Assembly (NCBI GenBank): GCA_963617205.1
Contig: CAVEOA010000002.1
Span: 22,289 to 86,288 of the forward strand
DNA: 64,000 nt
From: Alloprevotella sp.
GTDB lineage: Bacteria > Bacillota > Clostridia > Christensenellales > Aristaeellaceae
Reading direction: 5' to 3'
Shown: positions 1,555-19,818 of the stretch, piece after piece
How the letters are laid out: every line of letters begins with the position of its first letter
How positions within the stretch are numbered: the stretch's first letter is position 1
The notes under the pieces: model-generated
Databases searched by the model: none
Seen by the model: the letters and a program-made list of their open reading frames with translations, nothing else
What the model was told of the DNA's origin: nothing
Program-made: the position numbers and the translations under genes

Positions 1555-2808
1555 TCAATCAACAGGGAACACGATGGCAAGGCGAACAATCGCATCCTCC
1601 TGCGAAAATTTCATTTTACCGTGATACTTGTCCACAACATAACGAATGCCTTTCATGCCGAAGCCATGGTTCATTTTGTCAGGCTTTGTCGTTTCCATCC
1701 TGTCGAAATCAACCGGATAATTGCAGTAATTCTCCGCATTCACCAGCACCATTTCGCCATTTTTGACGATGCGCAGGCTAATCATTCGGTTATCCTTCTC
1801 TTCTTCTTTCATTTCGCTCTCGATGGCATTGTCAAGGATGTTGTTGAGCAGCGAGAACACGTCCACCGCCTCCATGAACGCCATCTGCGCGCCATCGACA
1901 ATGTAGCTGAAGCGAATGGTATTGATCTCGCACATCAGCCCCTTTTCCATCAGAACGGCGTCAACGGTCGCGTTGCCTGTATTTGCCATGCTGGCGTATA
2001 TCTGCATCGTGCGCTTCAATCCGTCCAGCTTGTGGGATTCCTCGGCGCTCATGCTCTCCTGAACTGCGCGGATCTGGCTGCGGATGTTATGCAGCTTCAC
2101 GCCCATCATCTCCACAGCCTGCTTGGACAGCTCATGCTGCTCGTGTTGCTGGCTGATAATCAGCTCGAGCGTGCGCTTTTCCTCCTGCATCTTTTCCGCT
2201 GCGGAGATGCTGAACTGAATCATCAGGCAGCTGATGCACGCAAGCGCATCATACACGTTCATGTACAGTGCGTCCTTTCTGCACGTGTCGCGGAGGCTGC
2301 TCAGCACGATGCAGATAACAATCAGCACCGTCGAAATCAGCACCTGACGGCGGTCTGCCGTTTCATAGAATCGATCGTTCTTCCTGAGAATCAACAGGCA
2401 GATCAGGGCAGCCACAATCAGATGATAACCCACGGCAGAAAGCAGACTGTAATCCGGCGGAATGATAATAAACTGGTTTGCGATGCTGCGTACGGACGAA
2501 CCGATATGCTGGATGGCATAGCTGCCGACGGAAACGAACAGGATGCCCGACAGGCGAATTTTCCAGCAAACCGCCGCGGTGCCTGCCGCAAGCAGCCATA
2601 CAATCACCCAGTCCAGCACGCGCATAACCGGCAGAATCTGCCAAAGCTCCAGCTTCTGATAAAATATTGTCGCCGCACCGCTGATGACGATTGACGCCGC
2701 CAGCCTGCCAACAAAGCCGCGTCTGCGCGGCGCATGCTTTAAATACACAAATTCTCCGATGAGCAGCTGCACATATACGAGCAAAAACGGATGATTCATT
2801 GAAAACAT
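1555..2808 (-). CDS. Membrane sensor histidine kinase, AgrC/ComD-like GHKL type (partner of the LytTR regulator)
   Basis: The N-terminal half has about 6 hydrophobic segments. The C-terminal half has an ATPase region (NNILDNAIES, HGFGMKGIRYVVDKY). ATG at 2808 is preferred: gggggtg lies upstream and TGATG shares one nt with the regulator stop. The ORF-track GTG at 2817 is the alternative. Confidence 0.8.
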   Translation of the reverse strand: MFSMNHPFLLVYVQLLIGEFVYLKHAPRRRGFVGRLAASIVISGAATIFYQKLELWQILPVMRVLDWVIVWLLAAGTAAVCWKIRLSGILFVSVGSYAIQHIGSSVRSIANQFIIIPPDYSLLSAVGYHLIVAALICLLILRKNDRFYETADRRQVLISTVLIVICIVLSSLRDTCRKDALYMNVYDALACISCLMIQFSISAAEKMQEEKRTLELIISQQHEQHELSKQAVEMMGVKLHNIRSQIRAVQESMSAEESHKLDGLKRTMQIYASMANTGNATVDAVLMEKGLMCEINTIRFSYIVDGAQMAFMEAVDVFSLLNNILDNAIESEMKEEEKDNRMISLRIVKNGEMVLVNAENYCNYPVDFDRMETTKPDKMNHGFGMKGIRYVVDKYHGKMKFSQEDAIVRLAIVFPVD

Positions 2809-3515
2809 CAGCAGCACCCCCTGCTCAGATAATCAATATACTTGTCCATAAATTCCTTTTTTCGTCCGCGGCTGATTTGGATGATTTGGTCGCCGATGAA
2901 CAGCTCATTATCCACGACCTTGCGGACGTGCGAGAGGTTGATCAGCACGCCGGCATTGCACATGGCAAAGCACGAATGTCCGAATTTCTCCTGCGCCGAC
3001 CGCATGGTGGAGCGCTCGCGGTATGATTCCTTCTCCGTGTGGTACGCGACGTAATTCCGTTCGCTTTCCACATACAGGATTTTCTGAAACGGCAGGCGCA
3101 CGACGCTCGTTTCGTTATGCACCACAATTTCGCCCTGCTCACGCCGTGCACAGAAGGACAGCGCCTTCTTGAGCTTCTGGCAGAACACGGCATACGACAT
3201 CGGTTTAATGACATAATCAATCGCATTGACCTCATAGCCGTTGATGGCATATTGCGAATAGTTCGTCAGGAAAACAATGGATACCGTATTATCGAACTCG
3301 CGGATGCGCTTCGCCGTCGCGATGCCGTCCATCAGAGGCATTTCCACATCGAGAAACACCACATCGCCGTCACCGCCGTAGTCGCTGACAAAATGAATGC
3401 CGTCGTTCGATGCCAGCGTTTCGATATTCTCGCCGCTTTCCCGGGCATATCGGGCGATGTATCCCTGCAGCTGCTCCCTGCACTTTGCGTCATCATCGAC
3501 AATCCCGATTTTCAA
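2808..3515 (-). CDS. LytTR-family response regulator
   Basis: Receiver motifs (KIGIVDDD, VVFLDVEMPLMDG, IVFLTN) are followed by a LytTR DNA-binding domain (ILYVESERNYVAYHT). TTG at 3515 is preceded by gaggggaggg. The ORF-track ATG at 3557 is the alternative start. Confidence 0.85.
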   Translation of the reverse strand: MKIGIVDDDAKCREQLQGYIARYARESGENIETLASNDGIHFVSDYGGDGDVVFLDVEMPLMDGIATAKRIREFDNTVSIVFLTNYSQYAINGYEVNAIDYVIKPMSYAVFCQKLKKALSFCARREQGEIVVHNETSVVRLPFQKILYVESERNYVAYHTEKESYRERSTMRSAQEKFGHSCFAMCNAGVLINLSHVRKVVDNELFIGDQIIQISRGRKKEFMDKYIDYLSRGCC

Positions 3516-3756
3516 GCGTTTCCCTCCCCTCGAACCATCACATGCAAAATTCAGCAATCATTTCTATATTATTGCACATAATCTTGTAGAACTTTAGCAA
3601 TACTCTTTTCAACTATACCATGCTTTCCGGCGAAAAGCAAGCGGAATAGACACGACTGCCTCAGCGCGCCGCCGCAATCAATCAAACAGACCTGCGCTTT
3701 TGACTGCTGCATGCCTACTGATGAGGCGATGGAGCTGATGTTGTGCAGCCTGTCGG

Positions 3757-3800
3757 ACGAAAAAGCCCGATGCCTGGCGTGATGCCGGGTATCGGGCTTT
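3757..3800 (-). terminator. Rho-independent terminator closing the minus-strand T7SS-associated operon
   Basis: Minus-strand read is AAGCCCGAT-(19 nt)-ATCGGGCTT followed by TTTCGT. The 9-bp stem arms are at 3763-3771 and 3791-3799. It lies 32 nt after the stop at 3832. Confidence 0.55.
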
Positions 3801-3831
3801 CCTGATGGTGGCTGTAATGACCGTATTTTTC

Positions 3832-4269
3832 TTACTGGCAGGGATCCTCTATGCCTTCAATGCTTTCCAGCTCAAGCCGAATCAGCTGATAGCCATGATC
3901 CTCATAGATTCTCAGCACGCCGACCGCGCGCACATAGGCTTCCGCCTCCGGATAGACGGCGTCGTCTGTCAGCCAGACCACTTCCATCCCCTCGCGCATC
4001 AAGCCGTCATCGCAGCAGCTTTCATGCCAGTGGTAGACGTAATAGTAGCTGTCGCGCTCCAGCTCGGGCGCGTCGCCGACATAGAGATACCCTTCAATGA
4101 GCACCGTTTGCCCAAGAAGCGATATGTGTTTGGTGTAGAATTCCTCCAGACAGTCGTGAAAATCCTCACAGCCGGTAATGCAGAACGCGGGCTCCTCTGC
4201 CATGCAGACGCCTTCGCAGGCAAGCGCAGCCGCCAGCAGAAGAATCATCAGCCTGATGAAGCGCTTCAA
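3832..4269 (-). CDS. Small secreted Cys-rich protein, unknown family
   Basis: Signal peptide MKRFIRLMILLLAAALA. There are 8 Cys in 145 aa (CEGVC, FCITGC, HDC, HESCCDDG, DPCQ). The start overlaps the upstream stop by 4 nt. No family recognised. Confidence 0.65.
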   Translation of the reverse strand: MKRFIRLMILLLAAALACEGVCMAEEPAFCITGCEDFHDCLEEFYTKHISLLGQTVLIEGYLYVGDAPELERDSYYYVYHWHESCCDDGLMREGMEVVWLTDDAVYPEAEAYVRAVGVLRIYEDHGYQLIRLELESIEGIEDPCQ

Positions 4270-4790
4270 TTTCGATTCCTTCCTTCGTCAATGTACGGCG
4301 TCTGCCTGCCTTCTCCGGAAAGAAGAAGGGTCAGGAAGCTGTTCTTGATCTCCACTGAACCGCACAGATAGCTTTCGCCGATAATCAGCGTCGGAACAAG
4401 CTGACGTTCCTCGGGAATGCCCTTGCGTTCATAGTATGCCTGAATGATGGTGCCCTCGTCCGGATTCGATTTATTCAGCGCAACGAGCCTGATTTTGCTT
4501 TTGCTGCCATCCGCCAGCGTGATTTCCTCCGGCAGCCCGGCGATGATCATATCCGCGCGTTCCGAGCAATACCTGCAGGTCGGGCGATAGAAGTAGTAAA
4601 CCAGCGAATCGCCGGCATCGACGTCCGCATCAATGCCTGTATTGCTTTTGGGATGATAATCCTCCGTCTCCTCCTCGGCAGGGGCTGAACCCATGAAGGC
4701 ATTCAGTCCCTGCTCCGCAAATGCATTCGCCGTCAGGAGGAGCGCAAGCAGCATCACCAGCGCAATGCGCTTCCCTCGTCCCATCGTCAT
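4266..4790 (-). CDS. Secreted thioredoxin-fold protein with CxxC motif (thiol-disulfide oxidoreductase-like)
   Basis: Signal peptide RIALVMLLALLLTANAFA. CxxC sits in YYFYRPTCRYCSE and a cis-Pro-like VPTLIIG follows. ATG 4790 overlaps the upstream TGA (ATGA at 4787-4790). The ORF-track start at 4865 would overlap the upstream CDS. Confidence 0.7.
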   Translation of the reverse strand: MTMGRGKRIALVMLLALLLTANAFAEQGLNAFMGSAPAEEETEDYHPKSNTGIDADVDAGDSLVYYFYRPTCRYCSERADMIIAGLPEEITLADGSKSKIRLVALNKSNPDEGTIIQAYYERKGIPEERQLVPTLIIGESYLCGSVEIKNSFLTLLLSGEGRQTPYIDEGRNRN

Positions 4791-6406
4791 TGCACCCGAT
4801 AGCGGTACAGCACGCGTGTCTGCACCTGACTTCCTTCGAGCGGCGTGTCCTGCCAGGCAGACCAATCGCCGTTGACCGTACGCGTTTCAACCTGTCTCGT
4901 ATCGCTTTGGCCAATCCAGTTCGTCGACCAATCGCTCCAAGAACCCCAGCCCTGATAGATATACTGCGTTGTCTTCGTGCGGGAACGGTACATGGTCACC
5001 TGAGTGGTCTCCGTCTTCGTGGAGGATTTTTCATTATACCATGATGAGCCGTCCGGCGCCTTATACCAATAGCAGCCGCCTTTTGTCCCCACTCCTGTAT
5101 ATCTGGTCGTGGAGCTTCTGTATTTCCAGCCGATTACACTCGTCACCACAGAAGGTGACTGCGTCGTCACATCGATGCAGCTGTAATAGAGCATGCCGGG
5201 ATAGTCGCGATGATAGTATTCCCAGCGGGAATAGTTCCAAACCGTCACTTCCTTCTCAACGTTCTGTGTGGTCGTTTCAACCTCCAGCGTAGCAGAACCG
5301 TAAATCGGCGTTTCAGAATAACCAGACCACTCGCCGTACACTACTTGCGCGTACCAGCCGCTGCCGGTCTGGGTTTCCGCGCTCGTCTTGGTGACAAAAT
5401 CACGGTAGCGATACTCGGTGGTTGCGGTTCTGTTGCGGTACTGCGTCTTTATGTCCACAATCGTCACGCCATTCGGCACGGTTTCCACCCAGTCCGAATA
5501 TACGACAGGCTTCGGGGTCGGCGTTGCCGTAATCACAGGCTTCGGGGTCGGCGTTGCCGTAATCACAGGCTTCGGGGTCGGCGTTGCCGTAATCACAGGT
5601 GTCGGCGTTGCCGTAATCACAGGCTTCGCCGTGACCTTCGGCACGTAATAAACGGTCGGCTTCGGGGTTGCCGTCGGTTCAGGCGTTGGTGTAATCAAAC
5701 TATCGGCATATTCCTTTGTAACAATATCGTACATTACCTTTGCCGGCTCATATTCGCCCTTAATCTGTGCAAGAAGCCTAGCCGCATCCTCTAAATTACC
5801 CTCTCCATAGGCTTTCAGCGCATCGACATAAACATCTTCATTGCTCGCAGCAGGTTGCCGGCCAATCATTAAAGACGTCATTCTTTCACGCGCATCATGG
5901 AAATCGAAGCACCTGAGATACAGCTCCGTTGCCAAGTCGATGTCTTTGTTGGCCTCCGCTTTTCGTCCATTGATATAGTCTCTGATTGTCGATACGGGAA
6001 CGATGCTGATCTCTCCGTCATCGATATTGCAATTTTCTTTCATGTATGCGACAAGTCCGTCTTCCTTTGCCTCGAGGTAATTGACGAACTGCTTTTGCAG
6101 CTCCATCGCCCTTACATACATTTCAGCGGTTTCAAGATCATCCTTTTCAATAATATACTGTACGGCTGTGGAATACATGATCAGATAAGAGCTGTATCCC
6201 TTGTTTCCACACATTTTAAAATCCGCAATGATATTATTGATATCCAGCCCTGAGTTCTTGGGATTGCTCATGTAGAGATTCAGATTCTTGATGGTCGTCG
6301 CATAGTTGTTTTCCATTGTTGTCTCCGCAGAAATCGCCACCGCAGAAACGTTCAGGCAGCAAAGCAGGGTCACCGCCGCAAGCAGCACCGACAATATACG
6401 TTTCAT
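4787..6406 (-). CDS. Secreted protein: helical TPR-like N-domain, Pro/Thr-rich repeat linker, W/Y/T-rich beta C-domain
   Basis: Signal peptide MKRILSVLLAAVTLLCCLNVSAVA. The linker is PVITATPTPK repeated about 4 times. The C-terminal half has recurring YRYR and WSxW motifs (EYRYRDF, WGSWSDWSTNW, GDWSAWQDTP, LYRYRVQ). No family name recognised. Confidence 0.7.
   Translation of the reverse strand: MKRILSVLLAAVTLLCCLNVSAVAISAETTMENNYATTIKNLNLYMSNPKNSGLDINNIIADFKMCGNKGYSSYLIMYSTAVQYIIEKDDLETAEMYVRAMELQKQFVNYLEAKEDGLVAYMKENCNIDDGEISIVPVSTIRDYINGRKAEANKDIDLATELYLRCFDFHDARERMTSLMIGRQPAASNEDVYVDALKAYGEGNLEDAARLLAQIKGEYEPAKVMYDIVTKEYADSLITPTPEPTATPKPTVYYVPKVTAKPVITATPTPVITATPTPKPVITATPTPKPVITATPTPKPVVYSDWVETVPNGVTIVDIKTQYRNRTATTEYRYRDFVTKTSAETQTGSGWYAQVVYGEWSGYSETPIYGSATLEVETTTQNVEKEVTVWNYSRWEYYHRDYPGMLYYSCIDVTTQSPSVVTSVIGWKYRSSTTRYTGVGTKGGCYWYKAPDGSSWYNEKSSTKTETTQVTMYRSRTKTTQYIYQGWGSWSDWSTNWIGQSDTRQVETRTVNGDWSAWQDTPLEGSQVQTRVLYRYRVQ
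5505..5630. repeat. In-frame 30-bp tandem repeat (3 identical copies, one 24-bp variant, one partial copy)
   Basis: The unit acaggcttcggggtcggcgttgccgtaatc occurs at 5505, 5535 and 5565 with 100 percent identity. Copy 4 at 5595 lacks 6 bp. The array encodes the PKPVITATPT linker of the 4787-6406 protein. Confidence 0.95.
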
Positions 6407-6444
6407 CCTATCTTCTCCTTTTCCTGCCGGACATGACGCCGGCT

Positions 6445-8076
6445 TTATTGAATGGTTCCGTTCATGTTGAACAGCAGTCCCTTGGAAGAGTAAACCCGAA
6501 GCTCGTAGTTTTGTCCGCTCACCAGGCTTTCCTTTGCCTGATTCAGCACCTCATCCAGCCGCACGAAGAGCAGATTCTGCCCGAAAATGCCACAGCCGCC
6601 GTCTTTCGCCGTCATCGTGACGATAGCTGTCTTTGTTCCGCACAGGATTGCCACCTTGCAGCTATCGATGGGCTCCGGAAATCCGTTGGCGGCAGACAAA
6701 TGGAGATACACGCCCTGTCCGTTGCCTTGCAGCTGCGCGACCGGCAGATTGCTGCCAGAGAGCATCCGCGTCAGCAAAGATTCCTGCATCAGCTTTTCAT
6801 GCTGGTCCGCGCCGTCATAGCCGCAATCCTTTGGATACCAGAAGAGCAGCCCTGTCATCTGTCCGTAATCCGTCGGGTCCTTTTCGAGCGTCAGCATGGC
6901 GGTTGAAGCCGCCTGTACGGTTTGATGCTGGTGAATCACACCGACAGCCGCCGCTGCAACGAGGACAACGACCATGACGATGGTGAGCAGCGTCCTTCTT
7001 TTCTTCCGTTTTTCCTCTTCGTTTTGCCTTCGCACGATTTCGTCCAGGTCATCGGTGATGCTGGCGTTCCGAGCCGCTGCCTGTGCATCCTCTGTCGCAG
7101 GCGGCTCTATCCTTTGTTCCGGCTGTTCGGGAATGACGCTCTCATCCTCATCCGGCCTATTCACCTTGCCTGCAAGCGAATCCGTCTGCGTTTCCGTTAC
7201 GCTCTCCCTTTGCTGATAGCGCCATTCTGGCGACGGATTTGCCTGTATTTTCTCTAATTCCTCAATAACCTCCCTGATGTTTTCCGGCCTGTCCTCCGGA
7301 TCTTCCGCCGTCATCTGCGCAGCAAACCGCCGCAGCGAGCTGCTCGTACCGTCCTGCTGCCCTTCAAGCAGCCGCTGAATCGTGCGTCCAAGGGCGTAGA
7401 TGTCTGTTTTCGGGCTCATCGTCCCGGAACGTCTCTCCGGCGCCTCGTAATCAGGCGTACCGCCCTGCCGCTGTCCATCTGTTTCCACCAGAAACGCTGA
7501 TACGCCGAAATCGCCGAGCTTGTAGATATGATCCCGCAGCCAGAAGATATTATCCGGCTTCACATCGCCGTGGATAATGGGCTTCGGCTGATGATAATGG
7601 CAGGTCTCCAGCGCCTTCGCGACGCACAGCGCAATCTGGATAATCCTGTCCTCGTTCATCGGCGTATCGGAAAGCACATTCTTGAGCGGCGTCAGCTTTT
7701 CCTCGCGGATCATCAGCATTGCGCCGGGTCTTCCCTCTGCCTTCACCTCTTCAAAGTCAAGGCAGTTCAGGATGTACGCCTCGCCCTGCAGCTGCTGCAT
7801 GATTCTGATTTCATCGCGGCACTGGGCAACCATTCTTTTGTATTTCTGCTCGATCGCGTCCGCCGTCAGACCGATGCTCTTCAGGTACTTCACATCATCC
7901 GTCTCGGGCATGACACAGATGACCTTGAGCGCCGATACGGTTTTTCCCGTCTCCGTTTCTCTTGCAATCTGGTAGACGACGCTCTTTCTTCCGCTTCCCA
8001 GAATGCTCTCAATCTGCCACGTCCGCAGCATTTCGGATTGCATCACGCACGCTCTGATCTGTGTCTCTTCCATCAT
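6445..8076 (-). CDS. Hanks-type Ser/Thr protein kinase, single-pass membrane protein with about 160-aa extracytoplasmic domain
   Basis: All catalytic motifs are present: G-loop LGSGRKSVVY, Lys in VSALKV, catalytic loop IIHGDVKPDNIF, LGDFGVS, GTPDYEAPE and DPEDRP. A TM segment LLTIVMVVVLVAAAAVGVI follows a charged linker. ATG 8076 overlaps the upstream stop (ATGA). Confidence 0.85.
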   Translation of the reverse strand: MMEETQIRACVMQSEMLRTWQIESILGSGRKSVVYQIARETETGKTVSALKVICVMPETDDVKYLKSIGLTADAIEQKYKRMVAQCRDEIRIMQQLQGEAYILNCLDFEEVKAEGRPGAMLMIREEKLTPLKNVLSDTPMNEDRIIQIALCVAKALETCHYHQPKPIIHGDVKPDNIFWLRDHIYKLGDFGVSAFLVETDGQRQGGTPDYEAPERRSGTMSPKTDIYALGRTIQRLLEGQQDGTSSSLRRFAAQMTAEDPEDRPENIREVIEELEKIQANPSPEWRYQQRESVTETQTDSLAGKVNRPDEDESVIPEQPEQRIEPPATEDAQAAARNASITDDLDEIVRRQNEEEKRKKRRTLLTIVMVVVLVAAAAVGVIHQHQTVQAASTAMLTLEKDPTDYGQMTGLLFWYPKDCGYDGADQHEKLMQESLLTRMLSGSNLPVAQLQGNGQGVYLHLSAANGFPEPIDSCKVAILCGTKTAIVTMTAKDGGCGIFGQNLLFVRLDEVLNQAKESLVSGQNYELRVYSSKGLLFNMNGTIQ

Positions 8077-9467
8077 TTCGTCACTCCTGAAGCCGAGAAG
8101 ATGATTTCACCGTCCAGCAGCAGCTCAACGCACCAGTCAGCCCCTGCCGGAATGCCTTGCAGCTGATCGAACAGGTCGGCCAGATAAATGGTCATCATCG
8201 TATCCGCGTTCGTGCCCGGCAGGAACCTGACCTGATCCATCGGCCATTGACCGGCAATCCGCGCCGTACCGCAGCCTTCCACGTGAAGATAGATTGCAGC
8301 CTCCTTGCCGTCAAATGCCTCGCGATTGATTTTTCCAACTGCCTTGACAATTTCCAGATAGTATCCGTACTCTGCCAGATTTTCCTCGGAAATATCAACC
8401 GCAAAATCGTTGACTCTCTGCGCCGAGCCGGCGTTGAACAGCGTCACCGCGGGAGAGCTGCCCTTGCTGCTGCCGCGGTCAATTTCGCTGACTGCCCTGC
8501 TGTAGCTCGTCTTCCTGACGCGGAACATGCGCACATTGACCGCTTCCTCTGCGCCGATGTACGTTTCGTTCGTGTCTGCCCTGTCCACGGAGATGGCGTT
8601 GCACTCGCTCTGCGCCAGCTGCCTTGCATCGTACACGCGAATGTAATACGTGCTTCCCTGCCACAAGCCGCTGACGGAAAACGACACGTCCGCATCCGTT
8701 GTCTGAACGCTGTAGAGCGCGCAGCCATTTTCGTCAGGCGTCCATGCAACTGTTTCGCCCTTTGTAACTTCCACCGCATCTCCGCTTACATCCGGCGCTT
8801 CCGCGAAGGTGCTGACCGTGATGCGGTAATCATTGATGTGCTGCTGATTCTCCCACGCAATTTCGATGGATGACCCATCGCCGCTCTGTTTTTTCGCCGT
8901 AAAGCTCAGGACAACCGACTGCAGGGCAGCGGCAGCCTTGTCCAGTTCCTTCTGTTCCTTCTGAAGCTTCCACAGCACATCCAGCTGCTCCGACGCCATG
9001 CCGGACAGGATGGTGTACTCCCGTGCTTCCTTCAAGTCGTTTTCGGCGTTCGTCAGGTCGCCTGATGCAAGCGCCTCGCTGCCCTGCACGTACTTGATGT
9101 AGTAGACAATGTCGGGGAATTTGCTTGACGAGCAGCGCTGAAAATGCTCCGCCGCATCCGCGTACTCCTCATCCCAGAAGCACAGCCACCCCTGCGCATA
9201 ATGATAGTATTCCGCCGCATCCTTGTAGCTGCCGTACACATTTTCCGCGTAGTTCGCAACCACGTTTGAGAAGGATTTGCGCGCCTGCACCATGTTGCCT
9301 GCGGCTTCATAGGTCTTTCCGCGATTGTACTCGGCGTACATGGCCTCAAGCTTTGATGCCAGCGAATAATCATCGACGCCCGCTGCCGTTTCAGCCATGC
9401 CTGTCGAACATGCACACAGCACCAATACAATCAGCAAGAACCACGCAATCGCATTTTTCCGTTTCAT
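8073..9467 (-). CDS. Putative lipoprotein with TPR-like helical N-half and FN3/Ig-like beta-rich C-half
   Basis: Signal with a probable lipobox, LIVLVLCACSTG. The helical region has Y/A-rich TPR-like repeats (AAEYYHYAQGW, AAEHFQRC). An FN3-like stretch follows (SIEIAWEN...YRITVS...STYYIRVYD). Confidence 0.65.
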   Translation of the reverse strand: MKRKNAIAWFLLIVLVLCACSTGMAETAAGVDDYSLASKLEAMYAEYNRGKTYEAAGNMVQARKSFSNVVANYAENVYGSYKDAAEYYHYAQGWLCFWDEEYADAAEHFQRCSSSKFPDIVYYIKYVQGSEALASGDLTNAENDLKEAREYTILSGMASEQLDVLWKLQKEQKELDKAAAALQSVVLSFTAKKQSGDGSSIEIAWENQQHINDYRITVSTFAEAPDVSGDAVEVTKGETVAWTPDENGCALYSVQTTDADVSFSVSGLWQGSTYYIRVYDARQLAQSECNAISVDRADTNETYIGAEEAVNVRMFRVRKTSYSRAVSEIDRGSSKGSSPAVTLFNAGSAQRVNDFAVDISEENLAEYGYYLEIVKAVGKINREAFDGKEAAIYLHVEGCGTARIAGQWPMDQVRFLPGTNADTMMTIYLADLFDQLQGIPAGADWCVELLLDGEIIFSASGVTK

Positions 9468-9508
9468 TGCCCATAGCCTCCGTCATGAATTGATGGTGTG
9501 TGCCTGCC

Positions 9509-9841
9509 TTAATCCAGCTCGTTGCTCTCTTCCGGCTTGCTTTCCGTCGGCTTTTCCGTCAGCATCTTCTGCTGTGCAGCGAGCACAAACTGGCTGGTCA
9601 CCGAGAATGTCCTGCCTTCCGGTCCCGTGTAACCCTTGAATAGGACCTCGCTGATGTTCTCCGTGTCAAACGGGCGAACCGTTTCGTCATCCTTTTCGCC
9701 CAGCGGATAGAACACGCCGACGTAATCAAAGCAATGCTCCTGAATTTTCAGGCCGTAGCCAACCACAGCGAAGCAATACTTCTTGTTCTCCTCAAGGCGC
9801 ACAATGCTCCCGATGGGAAGCATGTTTTCAGCTGTCAGCAC
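9509..9841 (-). CDS. DUF4176-family protein (T7SSb-associated accessory protein), copy 2
   Basis: Family-typical N-terminus LPIGSIVRLEENKK...DYVGVFYPLGE...ISEVLFKGY. It has a long tail ending ESNELD. Confidence 0.75.
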   Translation of the reverse strand: MLTAENMLPIGSIVRLEENKKYCFAVVGYGLKIQEHCFDYVGVFYPLGEKDDETVRPFDTENISEVLFKGYTGPEGRTFSVTSQFVLAAQQKMLTEKPTESKPEESNELD

Positions 9842-9859
9842 GAATTTTGACCTCCCCTA

Positions 9860-10648
9860 TCAATAACCAAAGATGGTGGTTTTAACGCCATTTGCAACAT
9901 AGTTAAAGCCTTTTCCGACCCATCCGCCGACTGTCCCGCCAGCCTGAGTTACCCAGGTGGTTGCGCTGTCCGGGATGATGTCGATTCCAAAGCCGTTCAA
10001 AACCGCATCAACCGTACCGATTACAGATCCTGCAGCGCTTGAACCGATACCAGTGCCAAGCGTTTCTGAGAGCGTCGTCTTGCCGCTGCGGTAATCTCCG
10101 ACAGCTTCGTTACGAACGCTCGCTATCGCATCGTCGGCATGCGTGTAAGAATGCGCCATATTTCCCGCGTTGCTGAGCATTGGAATTCCTGTAACGTCAG
10201 CTGCAATCACGCCTCCGGCACCAAACGCCGCCTCAAGCACGTCATTCGTGGTACCATTTGCAATGGCGTCAATCAGTTCGGACGCATAGCCGCCTGTGAC
10301 CACATCCAGAAGCGCCGTGACCGCCCCTGCTACGCCGCCATCCTGAAACGCTTCAATCACCTTCACGGCGGAGTCGTAAATTTCCTTTACCTTCAGCAGC
10401 TTATCCAGATACTTCGACAGCTTTTCAAACTTCTCAAAAATCGCCTTGACCGTGGCGCTGATTTTGCCCAGAACGGTTCCGCTCGTACTGCTTGCAAGGT
10501 CGCCGCCTGCTTCCGGATGCAGCTTCAGATAGCTCTCCGAGTTCTGTGCGCTTGTGAGTGCGTCCTTCGTGGTGTTCTTTGCACTTGTCGTCTGGTCAAT
10601 CAACGTCTGCAATGCTTGCGCATTATAGTCGGTTGTTACCGCCGTCAT
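9860..10648 (-). CDS. Putative T7SS substrate/effector: helical N-domain plus Gly/Ala/Ser-rich glycine-zipper C-domain
   Basis: 262 aa with no signal peptide. The helical N-terminal part is about 110 aa. The C-terminal part has GTGIGSSAAGSVIG and GGTVGGWVGKG (GxxxGxxxG). It lies directly after three small helical genes, as in LXG-type effector modules. Confidence 0.55.
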   Translation of the reverse strand: MTAVTTDYNAQALQTLIDQTTSAKNTTKDALTSAQNSESYLKLHPEAGGDLASSTSGTVLGKISATVKAIFEKFEKLSKYLDKLLKVKEIYDSAVKVIEAFQDGGVAGAVTALLDVVTGGYASELIDAIANGTTNDVLEAAFGAGGVIAADVTGIPMLSNAGNMAHSYTHADDAIASVRNEAVGDYRSGKTTLSETLGTGIGSSAAGSVIGTVDAVLNGFGIDIIPDSATTWVTQAGGTVGGWVGKGFNYVANGVKTTIFGY

Positions 10649-10671
10649 GTTCCCGCTCCTCCTGTTCTCTC

Positions 10672-10941
10672 TTAATCAAGCGTGTTCAAACGCCTTTCCG
10701 AAATCTGCTTCTCATTGTCGATGTTTTTCAGCAGCGTCTGCAGCTTCTGCAATGCCTTTTCAACCGCGTCGCTCTTCTCCGTGCACGCCTTATAGAGGTT
10801 TTGCGTATTGGCGCTCGCAATGCCCTGCTTCAAAAAGGCAAGCGCCTGCGAAAGATTGCCAATCTGCGTCTGCATGCTCGTCACAATCGACTGGCTGTTG
10901 TTTACCGCCGTCTCAAAGGCCGACAAATCAACATATGCCAT
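10672..10941 (-). CDS. Small alpha-helical T7SS-associated protein (Lap/WXG100-superfamily-like), 89 aa
   Basis: Helix-turn-helix-sized, no Trp, ends RRLNTLD. An SD-bearing 23-nt gap precedes the downstream gene. Confidence 0.55.
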   Translation of the reverse strand: MAYVDLSAFETAVNNSQSIVTSMQTQIGNLSQALAFLKQGIASANTQNLYKACTEKSDAVEKALQKLQTLLKNIDNEKQISERRLNTLD

Positions 10942-10965
10942 GGTTTTTCTCCTCCTTTTTCTCTC

Positions 10966-11268
10966 TTAAGACCCTTTAAGCACCTTCATTGCGTCCGTTT
11001 CCTTTTTGCTGAGTTCTCCGGAAAGCGTTCCGACCGCCGTTGCATACGCCTTCACCGCATCCGCAAGGCTCTGAATCTGCTCGCTGAGCTGCATGTTGTT
11101 GCTGGCGATGAAGTCCGACTTGTACTTGCTGTCCCAGGTGCTCAGCATCGCGTCAAGCTCCGTCTTAAGCTTCGCGCCGTTCTTCTTCAAGGCGTCCGAA
11201 ACGTCGTTCAGCGTGGTCAGCGCCTTGCTTACCTGCTGGCTGTCATACGAGTAGTTGGTATTTGCCAT
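10966..11268 (-). CDS. WXG100-like protein (EsxA-like, W-x-S variant), 100 aa
   Basis: The central motif LSTWDSKYKSDF aligns with the W-x-G...F pattern of EsxA-type proteins, with G replaced by S. ATG 11268 with gagaggggg upstream is preferred over the ORF-track GTG at 11274. Confidence 0.6.
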   Translation of the reverse strand: MANTNYSYDSQQVSKALTTLNDVSDALKKNGAKLKTELDAMLSTWDSKYKSDFIASNNMQLSEQIQSLADAVKAYATAVGTLSGELSKKETDAMKVLKGS

Positions 11269-11288
11269 ATGCACACGCCCCCTCTCTT

Positions 11289-11531
11289 TTATCCAAGCGC
11301 CTTAATCTTCTTCGTGATGGTTCCGCTTGCCGACTTCGCGCTGTTCTCCGCCTCATTCGCGTCCTTGATGCTGTCATCCAGAATTTTCTGAAGCTCATTA
11401 ACCGCCATGACGCCAATGGTCGACGTGTTCACGCTGGACAGCGCCTTGGAAGCCTCCTGCATCTTCAGTTCCATGTCTTCCAGATAGCGCTTTGCCGATG
11501 CCATGTCCGCGCTGTTATACTTGTCGCTCAT
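11289..11531 (-). CDS. Small alpha-helical T7SS-associated protein (Lap-like), 80 aa
   Basis: All-helical composition with no Trp or Cys. An N-terminal YNSAD (YxxxD pattern) is present. It is tightly packed, 12-14 nt from its neighbours. Confidence 0.5.
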   Translation of the reverse strand: MSDKYNSADMASAKRYLEDMELKMQEASKALSSVNTSTIGVMAVNELQKILDDSIKDANEAENSAKSASGTITKKIKALG

Positions 11532-11543
11532 CCTGCTTCCTCC

Positions 11544-11861
11544 TTAGTCAAGCTCGTTCGATTCGTGCATCTTCGGGGCAAATTCGCCCGCTGCGGCTCT
11601 GCGCTCCGCATCAGCCATCGCCTTCGTCATCCCCTGCTGAAACTCGGGGTACTTCTCGTACTGGTAGCCGTTGAACACCACCTGTTCGATGGCTTCCTCG
11701 TCAAAGAGGACGATGGGCATATCACCCAATCCCAGCGGATACGGAACAGAAGCGTACTTCCGGATGTTTCCGGCTGCTCCCACACGCAGATACCCCGTAA
11801 CCATGCGCTTCTCGCGATGATCCTTGATTGTCACAACGCTCCCGATTGGCAGAAACTCCAT
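11544..11861 (-). CDS. DUF4176-family protein, copy 1
   Basis: MEFLPIGSVVTIKDHREKRMV...VPYPLGL...IEQVVFNGYQ. The tail ends HESNELD. Confidence 0.75.
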   Translation of the reverse strand: MEFLPIGSVVTIKDHREKRMVTGYLRVGAAGNIRKYASVPYPLGLGDMPIVLFDEEAIEQVVFNGYQYEKYPEFQQGMTKAMADAERRAAAGEFAPKMHESNELD

Positions 11862-11880
11862 ACAGACCTCCTTATATTTT

Positions 11881-12123
11881 TCAGCACAGCATGAGTACTG
11901 AGCCGTTTTTCACATTCAGGCTGCGCACCGACTCGTTCAGGTCGAGCACCGCATGTCTCTGATTGTCGCAAAGCACGCAGGTCACCAAATCAATGTACGG
12001 CTGCGCATTCATCTGCTTAACGATGTCGGCAAGCATATCCCGGAAGGGCACATCCGCCGGCAGCGTAAACGTTTCGCATTGACCCGTGCCCGGCACCACA
12101 ATATGGGCAAGAATATGTTCCAT
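11881..12123 (-). CDS. esaB: EsaB/YukD-like ubiquitin-fold T7SS protein
   Basis: 80 aa, immediately downstream of essC (6-nt gap). A beta-grasp-like sequence is present (ILAHIVVPGTGQCETFTLPADVPFRDMLADI...NGSVLML). Confidence 0.7.
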   Translation of the reverse strand: MEHILAHIVVPGTGQCETFTLPADVPFRDMLADIVKQMNAQPYIDLVTCVLCDNQRHAVLDLNESVRSLNVKNGSVLMLC

Positions 12124-15100: not shown

Positions 15101-16647
15101 TTTTCGTTGTCCTTTTCCAGCCGGAGCATCAGCACATCGTTGAGCTGCGACAGGATTTCCATCGCATCCGCGTAATTGTCCGAAATCAGCTGACCCTCGC
15201 TGCCGTCATACAGCTGCATGTGCGGCAGCGCACGCAGGAAACGCCACTTCTCGCCGTTGCCCGGCTTTGCGATGAGGGCAATCCGCACATCCTCGGGCGC
15301 ATGCATGACGGACAGCTGTAAAATCAGCGTTTCAATCAGCGAAGATGCTTCCTCTGAGACGATGCCGAACAGCTTGTCATTGAGCAAATCAACCGTAATC
15401 GGCGCATCGTGCAGCATACTGAATTTTTCCTGCAGGCGGTACGGCGCATTCTTTTCGTCCTCAGGCACCTCGCCCATCTTCAATTTCGGCACGGAAATGC
15501 TGTACGGCAGCCTGACCTGTCCTCTCCCTATGCGTATTTTGAGAAACGTCTCGCTGTTCGGCGTTCTTTCCCATACGGCGGAGCTCAACTGCGCCGCATC
15601 GCTGCAGCATTGCTGCCATGCCGGATAATATTTTTCCAGCGTGTCCAGAATCTCCTCAACGCCCTTGTTGATTTCCTTTTCTGTTCGCCCAAGGCGCTTG
15701 ATATAATCCGCCATCGCTTCCTTGAACTGCTTTTTTCTCATGTGCCTGCTGTAGCAATAGTTCATCAGCGACCAGCCGACCGCCAGCACAGAGGAGGACA
15801 CCATCATCACCGTGCCATAGCCGCGATAGCTCGACCCGCTCAGCATGCTGCCCAGCAGCATCGGCAAGCTCATCGTCAGCGCCGGACCCATGCTCAGAAG
15901 AAGTGGCTGCGTCCTGTTTTCCTCAAGCACCGGCGTCGCTTCAATCTCGTACTTTTTCTCTTCTATTTTCGGCATGAAGCGCGGCGGTCGGGCGATATCC
16001 CGATACAGGGGAGCCGCCTTCGCCCGGAACGTCACGATATGCGGTATGCTCGCTGCCTGCAACGCAACGTGTCCGCCGCCGATGCCGCTGACGCCAATCA
16101 CGTTGCCGCCAAGATACACAATCTGCAATCCGCTTGCGAAGGCAATCAAATCGCCCGTGCGGATTTCCTTTTCTTCATTGCGGATGAACCATCCATTGAT
16201 AAACGAACCGTTCTTGGATGTATCGGCATAGCTTGCATGGTCTCCTGACACCTTCAGGACGCCATGATGATTAGAGAGGCGCTTGTCCGGCGAGCAAACG
16301 CCGCAGTCCTCATGACGTCCGATTTGCAGCGTCTCTCCGGTCAGGACATACTTGCCGAACCGGACGTCCTCCTGCAAAATTTCGGAGCAGTAAATGCCGA
16401 TTATCGCGTCCTCATGCTTCAGAATCAGGCTCATCTCATGATGCAGACACCGTTCCCGTGTATCCTCGCCGTCATTCCATGTCATTTCCTCAGGCTTGAC
16501 CGCGTACCACTGATGATCCATGGCAACAAACGTCACCTGATATTTCTCATAGGACGGCGCTGCCGCAGTGATGGCGTCCTTCTCGACGTCCGGCAGACAG
16601 AATATTTTTCCTCGTCCCCTGCTGTACATAACGATTCGTAGCATCAT
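12130..16647 (-). CDS. essC: EssC/YukB-type FtsK-SpoIIIE T7SS ATPase with N-terminal FHA domains
   Basis: 1505 aa. FHA-like region LQIGRHEDCGV...NHHGVLKV...DTSKNGSFINGW. Two TM segments are present. There are three P-loops: GTTGSGKSVLLQT, GHSQSGKTMFLQT and GKRETGKTSLLMS. Confidence 0.9.
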   Translation of the reverse strand: MMLRIVMYSRGRGKIFCLPDVEKDAITAAAPSYEKYQVTFVAMDHQWYAVKPEEMTWNDGEDTRERCLHHEMSLILKHEDAIIGIYCSEILQEDVRFGKYVLTGETLQIGRHEDCGVCSPDKRLSNHHGVLKVSGDHASYADTSKNGSFINGWFIRNEEKEIRTGDLIAFASGLQIVYLGGNVIGVSGIGGGHVALQAASIPHIVTFRAKAAPLYRDIARPPRFMPKIEEKKYEIEATPVLEENRTQPLLLSMGPALTMSLPMLLGSMLSGSSYRGYGTVMMVSSSVLAVGWSLMNYCYSRHMRKKQFKEAMADYIKRLGRTEKEINKGVEEILDTLEKYYPAWQQCCSDAAQLSSAVWERTPNSETFLKIRIGRGQVRLPYSISVPKLKMGEVPEDEKNAPYRLQEKFSMLHDAPITVDLLNDKLFGIVSEEASSLIETLILQLSVMHAPEDVRIALIAKPGNGEKWRFLRALPHMQLYDGSEGQLISDNYADAMEILSQLNDVLMLRLEKDNEKSAMLPHYIVIFEDSTYLWRHVLFSNIIASNAGFSICVCAEKEEELPKECKVVYNAREKKLYNYAEKTTQSVTPESCEESQFWQTIDTLNGCRETGLIGNRKIPDRVTFLEMYGVRETEQLGIRLRWEQNSTSRDIIAYLGKMAGERIFPLDLSDKQHGPHGIMAGTTGSGKSVLLQTLLLSLALNYSPEQMQFILIDYKGGGTFNNFRNMPHCIGFVDNLQGKRSINRALYSLRGEVKRRERLFKRYDVDNIDAYIRYVNPLADSRKLSHILIVIDEFSELMDELPDFMSELISTARVGRSVGLHLLLATQRPSNKVGPEIWSNSRFHICLQVRTREDSNDMLHRPDAAFIKGNGRGFVQVGNDELFEQIQTAYCGAAYEPEQGDPAAKPALMDSLGRRKKMVAAANAPTKKAKSQMSAVLDEINRTAETYGYQGAGKLWLPELPNVIDLTALPSAEENTEDGISAVIGMLDDVANQRYLTASLNVSALRNMAIIGHSQSGKTMFLQTLAYAVSRRYSPAQVQMMVLSFSGTALKSIETIPNVCDVLTKWESREERAAYYRLEELMTARDATFAEKKTDSFASYNRACEEDGEPVMPALIVAVDRFAQWYELLNDNEQEKVENLIKTASGRGIYFIVTANAMGEINRRLLEAMQVIPLGMGSASEYADALNVRTSSIQAIPADLPGRGVMNSKQGCLEFQTGLAFGLAEDRKRAEKLHEYGEALPPCSAPVLKMPRVPAEFGAQVLAAYGVKEKKAEVPVAFRHESLKPVFLDFYEKPTVLVAGKRETGKTSLLMSLAKLCAGDDGDIFVIASEADQARWKGVNGHVAFLSSNTPVDRQRGFTSDMDDRFGEQKRAQRAVSGWEDENNWRAIAGTMKPLCIVLDDVDRWFDGEKVDQQLSKQLLTAVRLGSKYSIRVLISTQINANSLPDSVRAFAQNCHIITTGNTLSSFDPWNCSLTYDRTNEYMKPGEGFVIPENRFPIKVYLPKE

Positions 16648-16911: not shown

Positions 16912-19818
16912 TCACGATTCATGAACATACGCAAGCATCGGTTCAAGCTCTTCCCAAAGGACAAAACCGCTGTCCCGCATGGCTTTATATTCCTCAAGAA
17001 CGGCATCGATGTACTCCTGTGCCTTGTCCTTCTTGTTCATGGCATCGTATGCCATCGCAATCTGGAAATGAATCGTCACGCGCCCGACCTCATCCGGCTG
17101 TTCGCACTCATTCATCCGTTTCAGGCACTCCTCAAGTATCTGCAGCGACTGCTTGTATTTTCCTGCTTCGTAATACGCATAGCCGCGTTGATCCAGTGCG
17201 TGAAGCGTCAGCCAGGACGTACGGTCGAGGTTCCTTATTTTGCACAGCAGCTGGTAATTGACCTGCAGCGCCTTCTGCGGCTGTTTTGCGCGCCGGTAGG
17301 CCTGTGCCAGATGAAGCAGCTCGTCCTTGTCGTTTTTCAATCTGTCATCCGTATTCTTCTCGTATCCTTCGATATAACGCTGCGCATACTTTTCTACCCT
17401 TTGCCACTGTCTGCCGACCGCGCACGCTTCCATCAGGTAAGCGCAGGAAATCCAGCTGTCATTTAGTTCCGAATCGTCTCCCATTTCTTTTATTATTTTT
17501 TCGATAAGCCGTTCAAATTTGTCAAGTTGCTCCTCCTGCGGAATGGCCGTGCCGAACATAACGCTGTAAAAAGCCTGTAGTTGAAGCTGGAAACAAAACG
17601 ACTTTTGCTCAGGGTCCATCTTCTCCGCCTGTGCCAGAAGCTCGCTGCACTTCACTACATCGCCGCTGTTCATGAGCACATTCCGCGCTTCTTCGATCAG
17701 CATAAACCCGCGTGGAATCGAGTTCGGGCATTCTTCCAGAATACGGCTGATCAGCGCATTTGTTTTTTTATTCCCAATGCTGTTGCCCATCTGAATGAAC
17801 ACAAACACACCCATTGCGGCAAGCGGATTTGCAAAGTCAATTTTCTCTGCTTCCTTCAGCAGCGCATCCGCATCGTTTTCTTCTCCGGAACTTTCATATT
17901 TTGCCATTCTGATCGCAATTTCAAAGCAATGCGCAATAAAACGTGTTTCCTTATTTGAACTTTTCCCGCAAAACTGCACCATTCTTTTCTGAATCTGGCG
18001 ATAGCTGTGCATCACAGCATACACCATCGCGCCAAGCGCAATTTCCTCCGGCACTTCCATCCCGTTCGCCACCAGAAAGGAAACAATGCTTGCACCGGCG
18101 TACGCCTCCTGCTTATAGCAGAACAGCTCGTCCCCATGCTGTGCGAACAGCTCCCGAATGCGTTTTTCCAGCTTCGGATAATCCTGAAGCCTGCCGAATT
18201 CCGTGCGCATCGCCTCGGCGATAACCGGCTGCATCGAATAGCCATGCCGATTCAGCTCCAGCCAGCCATTCAGATAGCCGCTGTAGAGCATCGATGGCAC
18301 CTTTTGGGCATCGGGCTCCGCGTCCAGCAGGAGATTTTCGATGCTTCTTGGCGGCCAGCTCACAGCATCCAGCGCTGAAAACAGCACCAGCAGCCTGCGC
18401 ATCTGGGGCGTCACGACGGTCGTCGCAAAGACCCTCCTGAGCTTCTCGATAAAGCTCTCGCTTTCGCCGCGATGAATCAGTTGCAGATTCTGATAGCCGT
18501 TCGCGTCAATTTCTTCGTTCAGCGCAGCGACTGTCAGCGAACGCATTTTCAATGCCTTGCCCAGCAGAATCACTGCCAGCGGATGCCCCTGCATGCGGTG
18601 GTGCAGCCGCTCAAATTCCTCTCTGCTGTCCGACAACGGGAAGCCGCTGCTGACCTCCAGCAGCTTTCTCGTTTCATCCACGCCCAAAGACGCCATAGGA
18701 AATTCTGAAAAGCCCTCCAGCTCTCGCTGACGGGACGTCACCAGCACATCGCAGCCGAAGCACGCCACCTTTTCCCATTGCTCCGGATTTCGGTCAATCC
18801 TTGCATTGTCAATCACCAGCAGCGTCCTGCCGCTGTACGGCTTGTCCAGTAGCTCTCCGACGCTGCGAAGGATCTTCTCCGGCTCCTCCTCTCGAAGCTC
18901 CGAAAACGCCTTTTGAAATGCCGCAGCCAAATCTCCCTGATCCTGCGCAAACGCCAGTCGGCTGTATCGACCCAGCTCTCCGCAGCGCACCAGCACCTGC
19001 CGGACAAGCTCCGTTTTTCCCATGCCGCCGGCGCCCGAAACGAGCACCTTTCCTCTTTTTTCCAGACGCGCATACAGCAAATCGACCACGTTTTCCGGAC
19101 AGGGCACGTAAGCCTCCTTCGCAAGCGCCTGCTTACAAGCCTCGCACTCATGCGACGTCAGCACCACCGGCACAAAGCGTCCGAACGTGACATGGCGGTA
19201 TTTCATGTACAGCTGGCTGGCTGAGAACTCATCGCGTTTCCGCAAAAGCGCAATCCGCTTGCTGTCCATATGGCTGCCAAGGAAAGCATAAACCGTCAGC
19301 CATGCCATCTGCACGCTGCAGAAAAAGCCCTGACTGGGGTAGTCCATCTCAAACGCTTCATTCGCCTCATCGCGCAGGGTTACCAGATGCGCCTGAATTT
19401 CGGACGTCATCGCGCTGTCGCCTGCTATGCACTGATCTTCAAACGCGCACAGCGACTGCATAAACAGGAACCAGTCCGGCTCCTGCCGATTCAGCAGCTC
19501 CAGCCATGCGACCGTCAGATGCATAAACTTCGTGCTGTCAAGCTCCTTGGAGAAGGTCTCGTAAAGCGGCGACATCACGCCTGCGGTGCCGCTGCGGTTC
19601 ATGATATTGCTCAGGCTTCGCGAGCGCTTCTCCTTCGTGCTCTCCAGCATGGCCAGCGCGTCATCATCCAGAATCGTCATCAGCAGCTCACGCCAGAAGT
19701 GAATCAGCGTCGTCTTCGCAAGCCGGATTGCGGCGGTTGATTTGTCCCCGTCTATGCCGTTGCTAAGCCAACGATAAATCTCACGCGGTGTCAGCAGTCG
19801 ATTGCCTTCTGTTTTCAT
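16912..19818 (-). CDS. STAND NTPase: unassigned about 250-aa N-domain, NB-ARC (AP-ATPase) module, C-terminal TPR array
   Basis: Walker A VSGAGGMGKTEL, Walker B LLVIDNA, RNBS-B-like DVLVTSR and GLPL-like QGHPLAVILLG. The C-terminus has multiple TPR-like repeats (YYEAGKYKQSLQILEECL, IAMAYDAMNKKDKAQEYID). Confidence 0.8.
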   Translation of the reverse strand: MKTEGNRLLTPREIYRWLSNGIDGDKSTAAIRLAKTTLIHFWRELLMTILDDDALAMLESTKEKRSRSLSNIMNRSGTAGVMSPLYETFSKELDSTKFMHLTVAWLELLNRQEPDWFLFMQSLCAFEDQCIAGDSAMTSEIQAHLVTLRDEANEAFEMDYPSQGFFCSVQMAWLTVYAFLGSHMDSKRIALLRKRDEFSASQLYMKYRHVTFGRFVPVVLTSHECEACKQALAKEAYVPCPENVVDLLYARLEKRGKVLVSGAGGMGKTELVRQVLVRCGELGRYSRLAFAQDQGDLAAAFQKAFSELREEEPEKILRSVGELLDKPYSGRTLLVIDNARIDRNPEQWEKVACFGCDVLVTSRQRELEGFSEFPMASLGVDETRKLLEVSSGFPLSDSREEFERLHHRMQGHPLAVILLGKALKMRSLTVAALNEEIDANGYQNLQLIHRGESESFIEKLRRVFATTVVTPQMRRLLVLFSALDAVSWPPRSIENLLLDAEPDAQKVPSMLYSGYLNGWLELNRHGYSMQPVIAEAMRTEFGRLQDYPKLEKRIRELFAQHGDELFCYKQEAYAGASIVSFLVANGMEVPEEIALGAMVYAVMHSYRQIQKRMVQFCGKSSNKETRFIAHCFEIAIRMAKYESSGEENDADALLKEAEKIDFANPLAAMGVFVFIQMGNSIGNKKTNALISRILEECPNSIPRGFMLIEEARNVLMNSGDVVKCSELLAQAEKMDPEQKSFCFQLQLQAFYSVMFGTAIPQEEQLDKFERLIEKIIKEMGDDSELNDSWISCAYLMEACAVGRQWQRVEKYAQRYIEGYEKNTDDRLKNDKDELLHLAQAYRRAKQPQKALQVNYQLLCKIRNLDRTSWLTLHALDQRGYAYYEAGKYKQSLQILEECLKRMNECEQPDEVGRVTIHFQIAMAYDAMNKKDKAQEYIDAVLEEYKAMRDSGFVLWEELEPMLAYVHES

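Follow-up and report, generated by a model that had tools for sequence, protein, structure and literature searches.

How machines that resemble the secretion system of type VIIb (T7SSb) are switched on remains an open question. The closest structural relatives of EssB, a bitopic component of T7SSb, are Hanks kinases such as PknB. The EssB motifs are degraded (LDMR, Ytfvlapd and TRG), and the contact of this pseudokinase with the FHA region of EssC is phosphorylation-independent. Other type VII secretion systems (T7SS) encode a kinase: Garrett, Higginson & Palmer (2024; PMC11217815) defined T7SSc-j, named the kinases of T7SSc, d, e and j TsxD (TscD, TsdD, TseD and TsjD), found that the kinases correlate with FHA domains competent for phosphothreonine (pThr) binding, and already drew the analogy with type VI secretion (T6SS). 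TsxD models have also been compared with EssB-like TraF (Kuhlmann et al, 2026), and an experimental bioRxiv preprint (2026; PMC13622651) reports that a Ser/Thr kinase and FHA pathway within an Esx locus of the actinobacterium Schaalia controls the system. Among the papers found, none directly tests Thr-phosphorylation gating of a non-canonical T7SS in Bacillota. Here, we describe a membrane-anchored Hanks kinase encoded in a T7SS operon of a Clostridia bacterium, within a 64,000-nucleotide stretch of DNA that we call the window (GenBank assembly GCA_963617205.1, contig CAVEOA010000002.1, positions 22,289 to 86,288; Alloprevotella sp., Aristaeellaceae in GTDB).

The reading that we favor, with reasonable though far from full confidence, is that this protein is an active, non-RD, TsxD-type membrane component of a non-canonical T7SS that lacks EssB, EssA and EsaA. 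Control of a T7SS by a kinase and an FHA domain is an idea published in 2024 and is not new as a concept. What is new is a rare T7SS lineage of uncultured Clostridia with a fixed gene order, whose kinase comes without PPM phosphatase, TsxJ or TsxI, has an orphan ectodomain and carries an invariant juxtamembrane motif. This lineage, seen in metagenomes and metagenome-assembled genomes (MAGs) only, probably fell outside the RefSeq-based 2024 survey.

Results

The kinase keeps its catalytic residues while its linker and membrane segment drift

An earlier note, made from the DNA letters, had described the protein as a catalytically intact Hanks kinase with the topology of EssB, and both descriptions held. 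The open reading frame matches PF00069 (Pkinase) with E=3e-25 and 89.5 bits for a cut-off of 31.7, and its closest solved structures by sequence are PknB, PAK and PknA. All the motifs that the note had quoted are present: a G-loop of sequence LGSGRKSVVY, K51 within SALK, a catalytic loop reading H169-G-D171-V-K173-P-D-N176, and then D189-F-G and A-P-E214; the αC Glu is E89, and D225 and R263 complete the set. The AlphaFold2 (AF2) model of the full-length protein (predicted local distance difference test, pLDDT, of 71.7) contains a bilobal kinase fold that Foldseek matches to AAK1, PknB and PpkA with E values from 1e-13 to 1e-11, and also to WNK; the PpkA kinase domain (5hnv) ranks 27th among these matches. 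Hydropathy and AF2 together give the layout kinase domain (~15-285), disordered acidic linker (286-340), long helix (341-378 in AF2) that holds the single transmembrane segment (363-381), and folded ectodomain. A KRKKRR stretch precedes the membrane segment and places the N-terminus in the cytoplasm.

Across family members of 38-99% identity, the catalytic motifs are invariant or nearly so. Down to ~38% identity, K51, E89, D171, K173, N176, D189, E214, D225 and R263 are all kept, while over the same range identity falls to 19-40% in the linker and to 9-22% in the transmembrane segment. This difference argues for selection on catalysis, and from its sequence the kinase looks catalytically competent. 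Two deviations are common to the whole family, namely HGD in place of HRD in the catalytic loop, which makes these kinases of the non-RD type, and a Ser in place of the third glycine of the G-loop (GxGxxS).

The ectodomain, 160 residues long and modeled alone, is predicted to fold as a β-sandwich (AF2 pLDDT 84.5). Its structural neighbors are weak, being sandwiches of the UNC119, PDE6D and TEAD type with Foldseek TM-scores of 0.40-0.44. We note that these neighbors bind lipid moieties (UNC119, PDE6-delta, the YBD of TEAD) and that the kinase gene is coupled to that of a probable lipoprotein. A ligand claim drawn from the lipid-binding sandwiches was dropped, as a TM-score of ~0.4 is too weak, and sensing of a lipid or lipoprotein by the modeled ectodomain is a speculative hint. 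Prompted by the tetratricopeptide repeat (TPR) ectodomain of TsjD, we also considered, in the manner of a Rosetta stone, that the kinase ectodomain might share a domain with the 464-residue lipoprotein; this was rejected, as BLASTP found no match and hhalign gave a probability of 0.17% (E=0.36).

An FHA domain of EssC carries the phosphothreonine motifs

The ATPase encoded by the same operon passes the EssC model of NCBIfam (TIGR03928) marginally, with 791.9 bits for a cut-off of 778.4, and is only 26-30% identical to the EssC proteins of two other kinase-bearing loci (L007 and L005). The earlier note had given it several N-terminal FHA domains; one is detectable with Pfam (residues 109-170), and the first ~95 residues, possibly a degenerate FHA domain, have no Pfam FHA match. 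The detected domain, FHA2, aligns to the FHA domains of Rv1747 and GarA, both binders of pThr, rather than to solved EssC FHA domains. Its GR, SxxH and NG motifs are kept in the EssC orthologues, with a TxxH variant in L093, and are missing from Listeria EssC. In the 2024 survey (Garrett et al, 2024, Table S1; PMC11217815), the FHA domain of T7SSb EssC has GR conserved at 0%, SxxH at 0% and NG at 21%, and the TsdC, TseC and TsjC proteins of kinase-bearing T7SS have all three conserved at 90-100%.

An invariant threonine motif stands out of the divergent linker

Just after the kinase domain, the seven family members compared share, without exception, a W-x-Y followed by E-T-x-T-D-x-[L/I]. The linker around this motif is only 19-40% identical, apart from P0008, a 90%-identical member whose linker identity is 81%. 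The pattern ET.TD.[LI] matches once in all six frames of the window, and this match is the kinase motif itself. Within T-x-T-D, the first Thr has an Asp at +3 and the second a Leu or Ile at +3; pT-x-x-D and pT-x-x-[L/I] are classic FHA ligand patterns. We infer that ETxTDx[L/I] is a candidate site for autophosphorylation and for FHA docking.

The kinase gene belongs to a T7SS operon without EssB

The kinase gene overlaps the stop codon of its upstream neighbor, the gene of the 464-residue lipoprotein, by an ATGA at 8073-8076, which confirms the translational coupling proposed in the earlier note. Its placement inside the T7SS operon is likewise borne out. The STAND gene, the genes from essC through the kinase, the gene of the 539-residue protein and two more small coupled genes lie on the same strand, separated by short gaps or overlapping. 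The only strong promoter-like match (11/12, σ70-like) is located at 19870-19841, before the STAND gene, and no minus-strand terminator-like site was found within 3400-20000.

The locus departs from a canonical T7SSb: EsaA, EssA and EssB were not found in the window, and the FHA domain of EssC carries pThr motifs. None of the operon proteins matches EssB/YukC, EssA or EsaA models (Pfam, NCBIfam), and tblastn of Listeria EssA, EssB and EsaA against the 64 kb returned nothing; no separate essB was thus seen in the operon or the window. Nor does the window encode a PPM phosphatase or a separate FHA protein, as judged by tblastn with the L007 proteins and by Pfam scans.

The kinase itself was considered as a candidate EssB/YukC and rejected. 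It has no YukC or EssB match at E≤0.01 (Pfam, NCBIfam), its family profile aligns to Listeria EssB with an hhalign probability of 0.65%, and none of the best 50 Foldseek matches, for the whole protein or for the ectodomain, is an EssB or YukC chain. The C-terminal segment of EssB is helical (PMC3694306), in contrast to the β-sandwich modeled here, and the catalytic motifs degraded in EssB are intact in the kinase. Gene position differs as well: the earlier note had put the kinase in the position of EssB, whereas essB lies immediately upstream of essC at the canonical Listeria T7SSb locus and the kinase gene lies nine genes downstream of it here. The likeness to EssB is limited to the bitopic topology, with a cytoplasmic N-terminus and a kinase-like domain, and to a probable partnership with the FHA region of EssC.

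A small family with a fixed gene order

The kinase family is small: clustering at 90% identity leaves roughly twelve groups from a set of 5.8 billion proteins, and the ectodomain has 5 representatives among 1.84 billion proteins. A scan of species-representative genomes returned only relatives of the kinase domain, at ≤36% identity. Members of the family thus come from metagenomes and MAGs only, none from a cultured organism. A housekeeping gene, that of the PPi-phosphofructokinase, had its best named matches in Aristaeellaceae (71%) and Candidatus Limiplasma (65%), in keeping with uncultured Clostridia and no finer placement.

In every relative examined, the kinase gene lies within the T7SS cluster and the lipoprotein gene lies immediately upstream of it. 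The same order, ending with lipoprotein and then kinase, is found in L001, L090 and L091 (99% EssC identity), L094 (78%), L002 (63%) and L093 (50%), and in the partial locus L089 of a more distant member, whose contig is short, DUF4176, lipoprotein and kinase follow one another. The 11-gene block, which includes the genes of EssC, YukD, a DUF4176 protein, three small helical proteins, the 262-residue protein, a second DUF4176 protein, the lipoprotein and the kinase, is thus fixed down to 50% EssC identity. The 102- and 89-residue helical proteins have counterparts in the corresponding positions of L002, L093 and L094; the 80-residue one has a tblastn match in L094 only, genes of similar size occupying its slot in L002 and L093. 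A homologue of the 539-residue protein is encoded downstream of the kinase at three loci (L002, L003 and L094) and upstream of essC at another, L093, which lacks the STAND gene. What stays invariant is therefore the core from EssC to the kinase together with the 539-residue protein. The flanks of the T7SS block in L093 (1-19080) encode a resolvase, a MobA/MobL relaxase, a DUF3847 protein and a large serine recombinase, which suggests that the block is carried on an integrative or mobilizable element.

As its nearest relatives, the kinase has ordinary multi-domain kinases of Clostridia. The closest kinases outside the family, with 31-36% identity over the kinase domain, are encoded within 10 kb of an FHA-bearing EssC (L004, L005, L007 and L084). 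A PP2C phosphatase is encoded in L007 and L084, and L007 also has a separate FHA protein, resembling the published T7SSe.

Discussion

Comparison with described kinase systems

The kinase described here resembles TsxD of T7SSc, d, e and j in being a membrane Ser/Thr kinase with an N-terminal cytoplasmic domain and a conserved active site, encoded in a cluster without EssB, and in having as partner a TsxC-type ATPase whose FHA domain carries GR, SxxH and NG. Moreover, the nearest relatives outside the family sit in such clusters, L007 being T7SSe-like and L084 another. The differences concern both the protein and its neighbors. The ectodomain is an orphan β-sandwich here but helical or made of TPRs in TsxD, the catalytic loop reads HGD while the relatives have HRD, and EssC still scores as of the T7SSb type. 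The PPM phosphatase (TsxF), the DUF6382-FHA protein (TsxJ) and the large Ig-like TsxI of T7SSe and T7SSj, which the comparison locus L007 has, were found neither in the window nor in L002, L093 and L094, and no gene fits the small, single-transmembrane TsxH/K. Conversely, the cluster adds a pair of DUF4176 proteins, the lipoprotein and the PT-rich secreted protein, and usually a STAND NTPase as well. By this gene content we rate the cluster as apart from both T7SSe and T7SSj rather than as a member of either.

The T6SS pathway of PpkA, PppA and Fha has a comparable logic, with a membrane Hanks kinase bearing a periplasmic or extracellular sensor, an FHA reader and post-translational gating. 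It belongs to another secretion system and another phylum; the FHA domain here is fused to the motor ATPase and no cognate phosphatase is found, and the resemblance is an analogy only. The Esr pathway of Actinomycetales (PMC13622651) likewise embeds Ser/Thr kinase and FHA signaling in a T7SS locus; its proposed role is to detect a cue at the surface and modulate EccC. It differs in being built from MoxR, vWA, β-propeller, transglutaminase and pseudophosphatase-FHA components, all of them absent here, and in that its demonstrated output is transcriptional.

A possible licensing circuit

The earlier note had suggested a Thr-phosphorylation switch comparable to PpkA/Fha1. With a kinase that appears competent, its membership of the operon and the pThr motifs of FHA2, such a switch is a reasonable and plausible reading, but one already proposed in 2024. 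In the scheme that we propose, an extracellular or envelope cue, sensed by the ectodomain with the lipoprotein and/or the secreted 539-residue protein, would activate the kinase, which would autophosphorylate its juxtamembrane E-T-x-T-D-x-[L/I] (T296/T298). FHA2 of EssC would dock on the phosphorylated motif, and this docking would recruit or license the ATPase for assembly and secretion. The circuit formed by the kinase and FHA2 would thereby functionally replace the phosphorylation-independent contact between the EssB pseudokinase and the EssC FHA region of T7SSb. Going one step further, and tentatively, the cluster may be an undescribed minimal T7SS subtype, sometimes mobile, in which a kinase without phosphatase or adaptor licenses secretion through its autophosphorylated motif to EssC FHA2, with the ectodomain and the lipoprotein as the trigger.

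Several points weigh against an active kinase that signals to EssC. The non-RD loop and the GxGxxS G-loop cast some doubt on the level of activity and on its regulation, and the orthologue in L093 has DFD in place of DFG in the kinase and TxxH in place of SxxH in the FHA domain. The docking role of the juxtamembrane motif is inferred from its conservation and from generic FHA ligand rules. Unlike T7SSc, T7SSe and T7SSj, the five loci of this lineage have no PPM phosphatase, which leaves reversibility unexplained. Finally, an essB or a phosphatase gene could lie beyond the 64-kb window, which is the part of the genome inspected.

Among the alternatives, the kinase could control the T7SS indirectly, by phosphorylating the STAND protein (as AfsK does with AfsR), the LytTR system or an unlinked factor without docking on EssC, and it would then alter transcription or substrate hierarchy. 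An NB-ARC and TPR protein heads the operon, a LytTR regulator and a GHKL kinase lie just downstream, a LytTR protein lies within the T7SS cluster of L005, and the Esr pathway of Schaalia works at the level of transcription by way of a kinase and an FHA protein (PMC13622651); IreK is reported to activate T7SS transcription in E. faecalis. However, L093 has no STAND gene, and L002, L093 and L094 have no LytTR system, whereas the kinase, the lipoprotein and the FHA domain of EssC are always there. The STAND protein showed no DNA-binding domain, and indirect control leaves unexplained why the pThr residues of FHA2 are retained specifically in kinase-bearing systems. We consider such control unlikely. 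The retained pThr pocket also speaks against a pure scaffold, in which the kinase fold and membrane helix would serve assembly as EssB does and catalysis would be dispensable. The non-RD loop and the altered G-loop would fit this role, as would the bitopic topology, which no other operon protein has, and the EssB pseudokinase does bind the EssC FHA region in T7SSb without phosphorylation. Nevertheless, pseudokinases such as EssB lose their catalytic motifs, and here every catalytic residue is invariant to ~38% identity while linker and membrane segment drift to 9-40%, which makes a scaffold quite improbable.

The earlier note had offered, as an alternative to the switch, that the protein is an ancestral, still-active form of EssB. 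True homology with EssB/YukC would account for a kinase-like fold, one transmembrane helix and an ectodomain encoded at a T7SS locus in both cases. The searches above (models, hhalign, Foldseek) argue to the contrary, as do the β-sandwich ectodomain, the gene position and the ordinary multi-domain Clostridia kinases that are the nearest relatives, and we regard this origin as very improbable. Hardly credible is the view that lipoprotein, kinase and secreted protein form an independent envelope-sensing module that merely neighbors the T7SS genes. The three proteins (464 residues, kinase and 539 residues) are indeed conserved as a unit. Yet this trio is never apart from EssC or DUF4176 on contigs long enough to judge, its genes are joined to the others by short gaps or overlaps without an internal terminator, and the block of L093 travels as a whole on a mobile element. 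We are thus left with an active TsxD-type kinase as the preferred reading.

The general published picture of T7SS is unchanged by this locus. It extends EssB-less, kinase-bearing T7SS to uncultured Clostridia of the gut type and indicates, from L093, that they can travel on mobile elements. It also offers a stripped-down case, with one kinase, one FHA domain fused to the motor, no phosphatase, no extra FHA protein and a concrete candidate docking motif, so that the hypothesis is reduced to a few peptide-binding and point-mutant experiments. Were direct licensing of EssC true, no T7SS would be known to have a simpler kinase-to-motor circuit.

Neighboring genes and related loci

The features of the operon are collected in Table 1.

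Table 1. Features of the kinase-bearing T7SS operon (coordinates within the window; aa, amino acids).
Feature	Position	Strand	Basis or description
Bitopic Hanks Ser/Thr kinase, TsxD-like	6445..8076	(-)	543 aa
Catalytic kinase domain, non-RD, aa 15-285	7222..8034	(-)	Pfam, motif alignment, AF2 and Foldseek
Candidate juxtamembrane motif T294-E-T296-Q-T298-D-S-L301	7174..7197	(-)	Invariant in 7 family members
Single transmembrane helix with basic N-flank, aa 361-383	6928..6996	(-)	Hydropathy, AF2 helix
Orphan extracellular β-sandwich, aa 384-543	6448..6927	(-)	AF2 model, pLDDT 84.5
EssC/TsxC ATPase, 1505 aa	12130..16647	(-)	TIGR03928, FtsK_SpoIIIE, FHA
EssC FHA2, aa 96-180; G110-R111, S125-x-x-H128, N146-G147	16108..16362	(-)	Alignment to Rv1747/GarA FHA
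NB-ARC (STAND) and C-terminal TPR protein, 968 aa, first operon gene	16912..19818	(-)	Pfam scan
YukD/EsaB-like ubiquitin-fold protein (TsxB)	11881..12123	(-)	PF08817, E=4e-7
DUF4176 protein, first	11544..11861	(-)	PF13780, E=3.6e-17
Three small helical proteins, 80/102/89 aa; middle one weakly WXG100/ESAT-6-like	10672..11531	(-)	Profile scans, sequence
262-aa protein, helical N-terminus, Gly/Ala-rich C-terminus	9860..10648	(-)	Sequence; 34-46% identity, same position in relatives
DUF4176 protein, second	9509..9841	(-)	PF13780, E=7.5e-17
Exported TPR-like protein, probably a lipoprotein, 464 aa	8073..9467	(-)	Signal/lipobox-like N-terminus; weak TPR and fn3 matches
Secreted protein, 539 aa, PT-rich repeat linker, W/Y-rich C-terminal domain	4787..6406	(-)	Sequence

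The block at 9509-11861 (-) has the look of a toxin of the LXG type accompanied by Lap and DUF4176 partners, and has no obvious immunity gene. Its order, with 30-60% identity, is kept among EssC relatives down to 50% identity (L002, L093 and L094). As order and identity are kept and no immunity gene is obvious, the block may be core machinery or a fixed substrate rather than variable cargo. Judging from its composition and position, the 262-residue protein may be a substrate, LXG-like or of the glycine-zipper kind, or else belong to the core of the system.

The PT-rich linker of the 539-residue protein consists of KPVITATPTP in tandem, in ~4 copies. The two genes that follow, coupled by 4-nucleotide overlaps (all three genes at 3832-6406 (-)), encode proteins of 174 and 145 residues, the former exported and thioredoxin-like with a CRYC (CxxC) motif. 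At the other end of the operon, the STAND protein has an AfsR-like architecture, with relatives in L094 (65% identity) and L002 (30%); it could be a target of the kinase or serve as an accessory ATPase akin to EccA/TsfV.

The operon is closely followed, on its downstream side, by the genes of an Agr-like LytTR response regulator and of a GHKL histidine kinase (1555-3557 (-)), which are also present in L090 and L091. In L005, an unrelated kinase-bearing T7SS, a LytTR protein is encoded between essC and yukD (6158-6889), so that the association with LytTR is recurrent. Divergent from the operon, an MBOAT acyltransferase paired with an AlgX/DHHW SGNH-like protein (19864-22677 (+)) probably acts in O-acylation of a cell-envelope polymer. 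The remaining ~45 kb of the window is devoted to sugar and peptide metabolism, from Pfam scans of ~30 further open reading frames.

Some loci met along the way are worth recording. In L085 (633-6026) and L086, a related TPR-kinase adjoins a PP2C phosphatase and a double-FHA ABC transporter resembling Rv1747, with CHAP and lysozyme genes nearby; no T7SS genes were called within the stretches read of either contig. In Agathobacter rectalis, a cultured member of the Lachnospiraceae (L088; NZ_CP143948.1, 7426-11854), essC is annotated as two genes (FHA domain-containing protein and essC) and no protein kinase is annotated within the 23 kb shown; genes for YukD, WXG100 and Imm59 proteins lie near essC, and the locus abuts an integrase/excisionase element. 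Finally, the T7SS locus of L084 (6652-12577) encodes two kinases, one of them with PASTA domains, on either side of its PP2C phosphatase.

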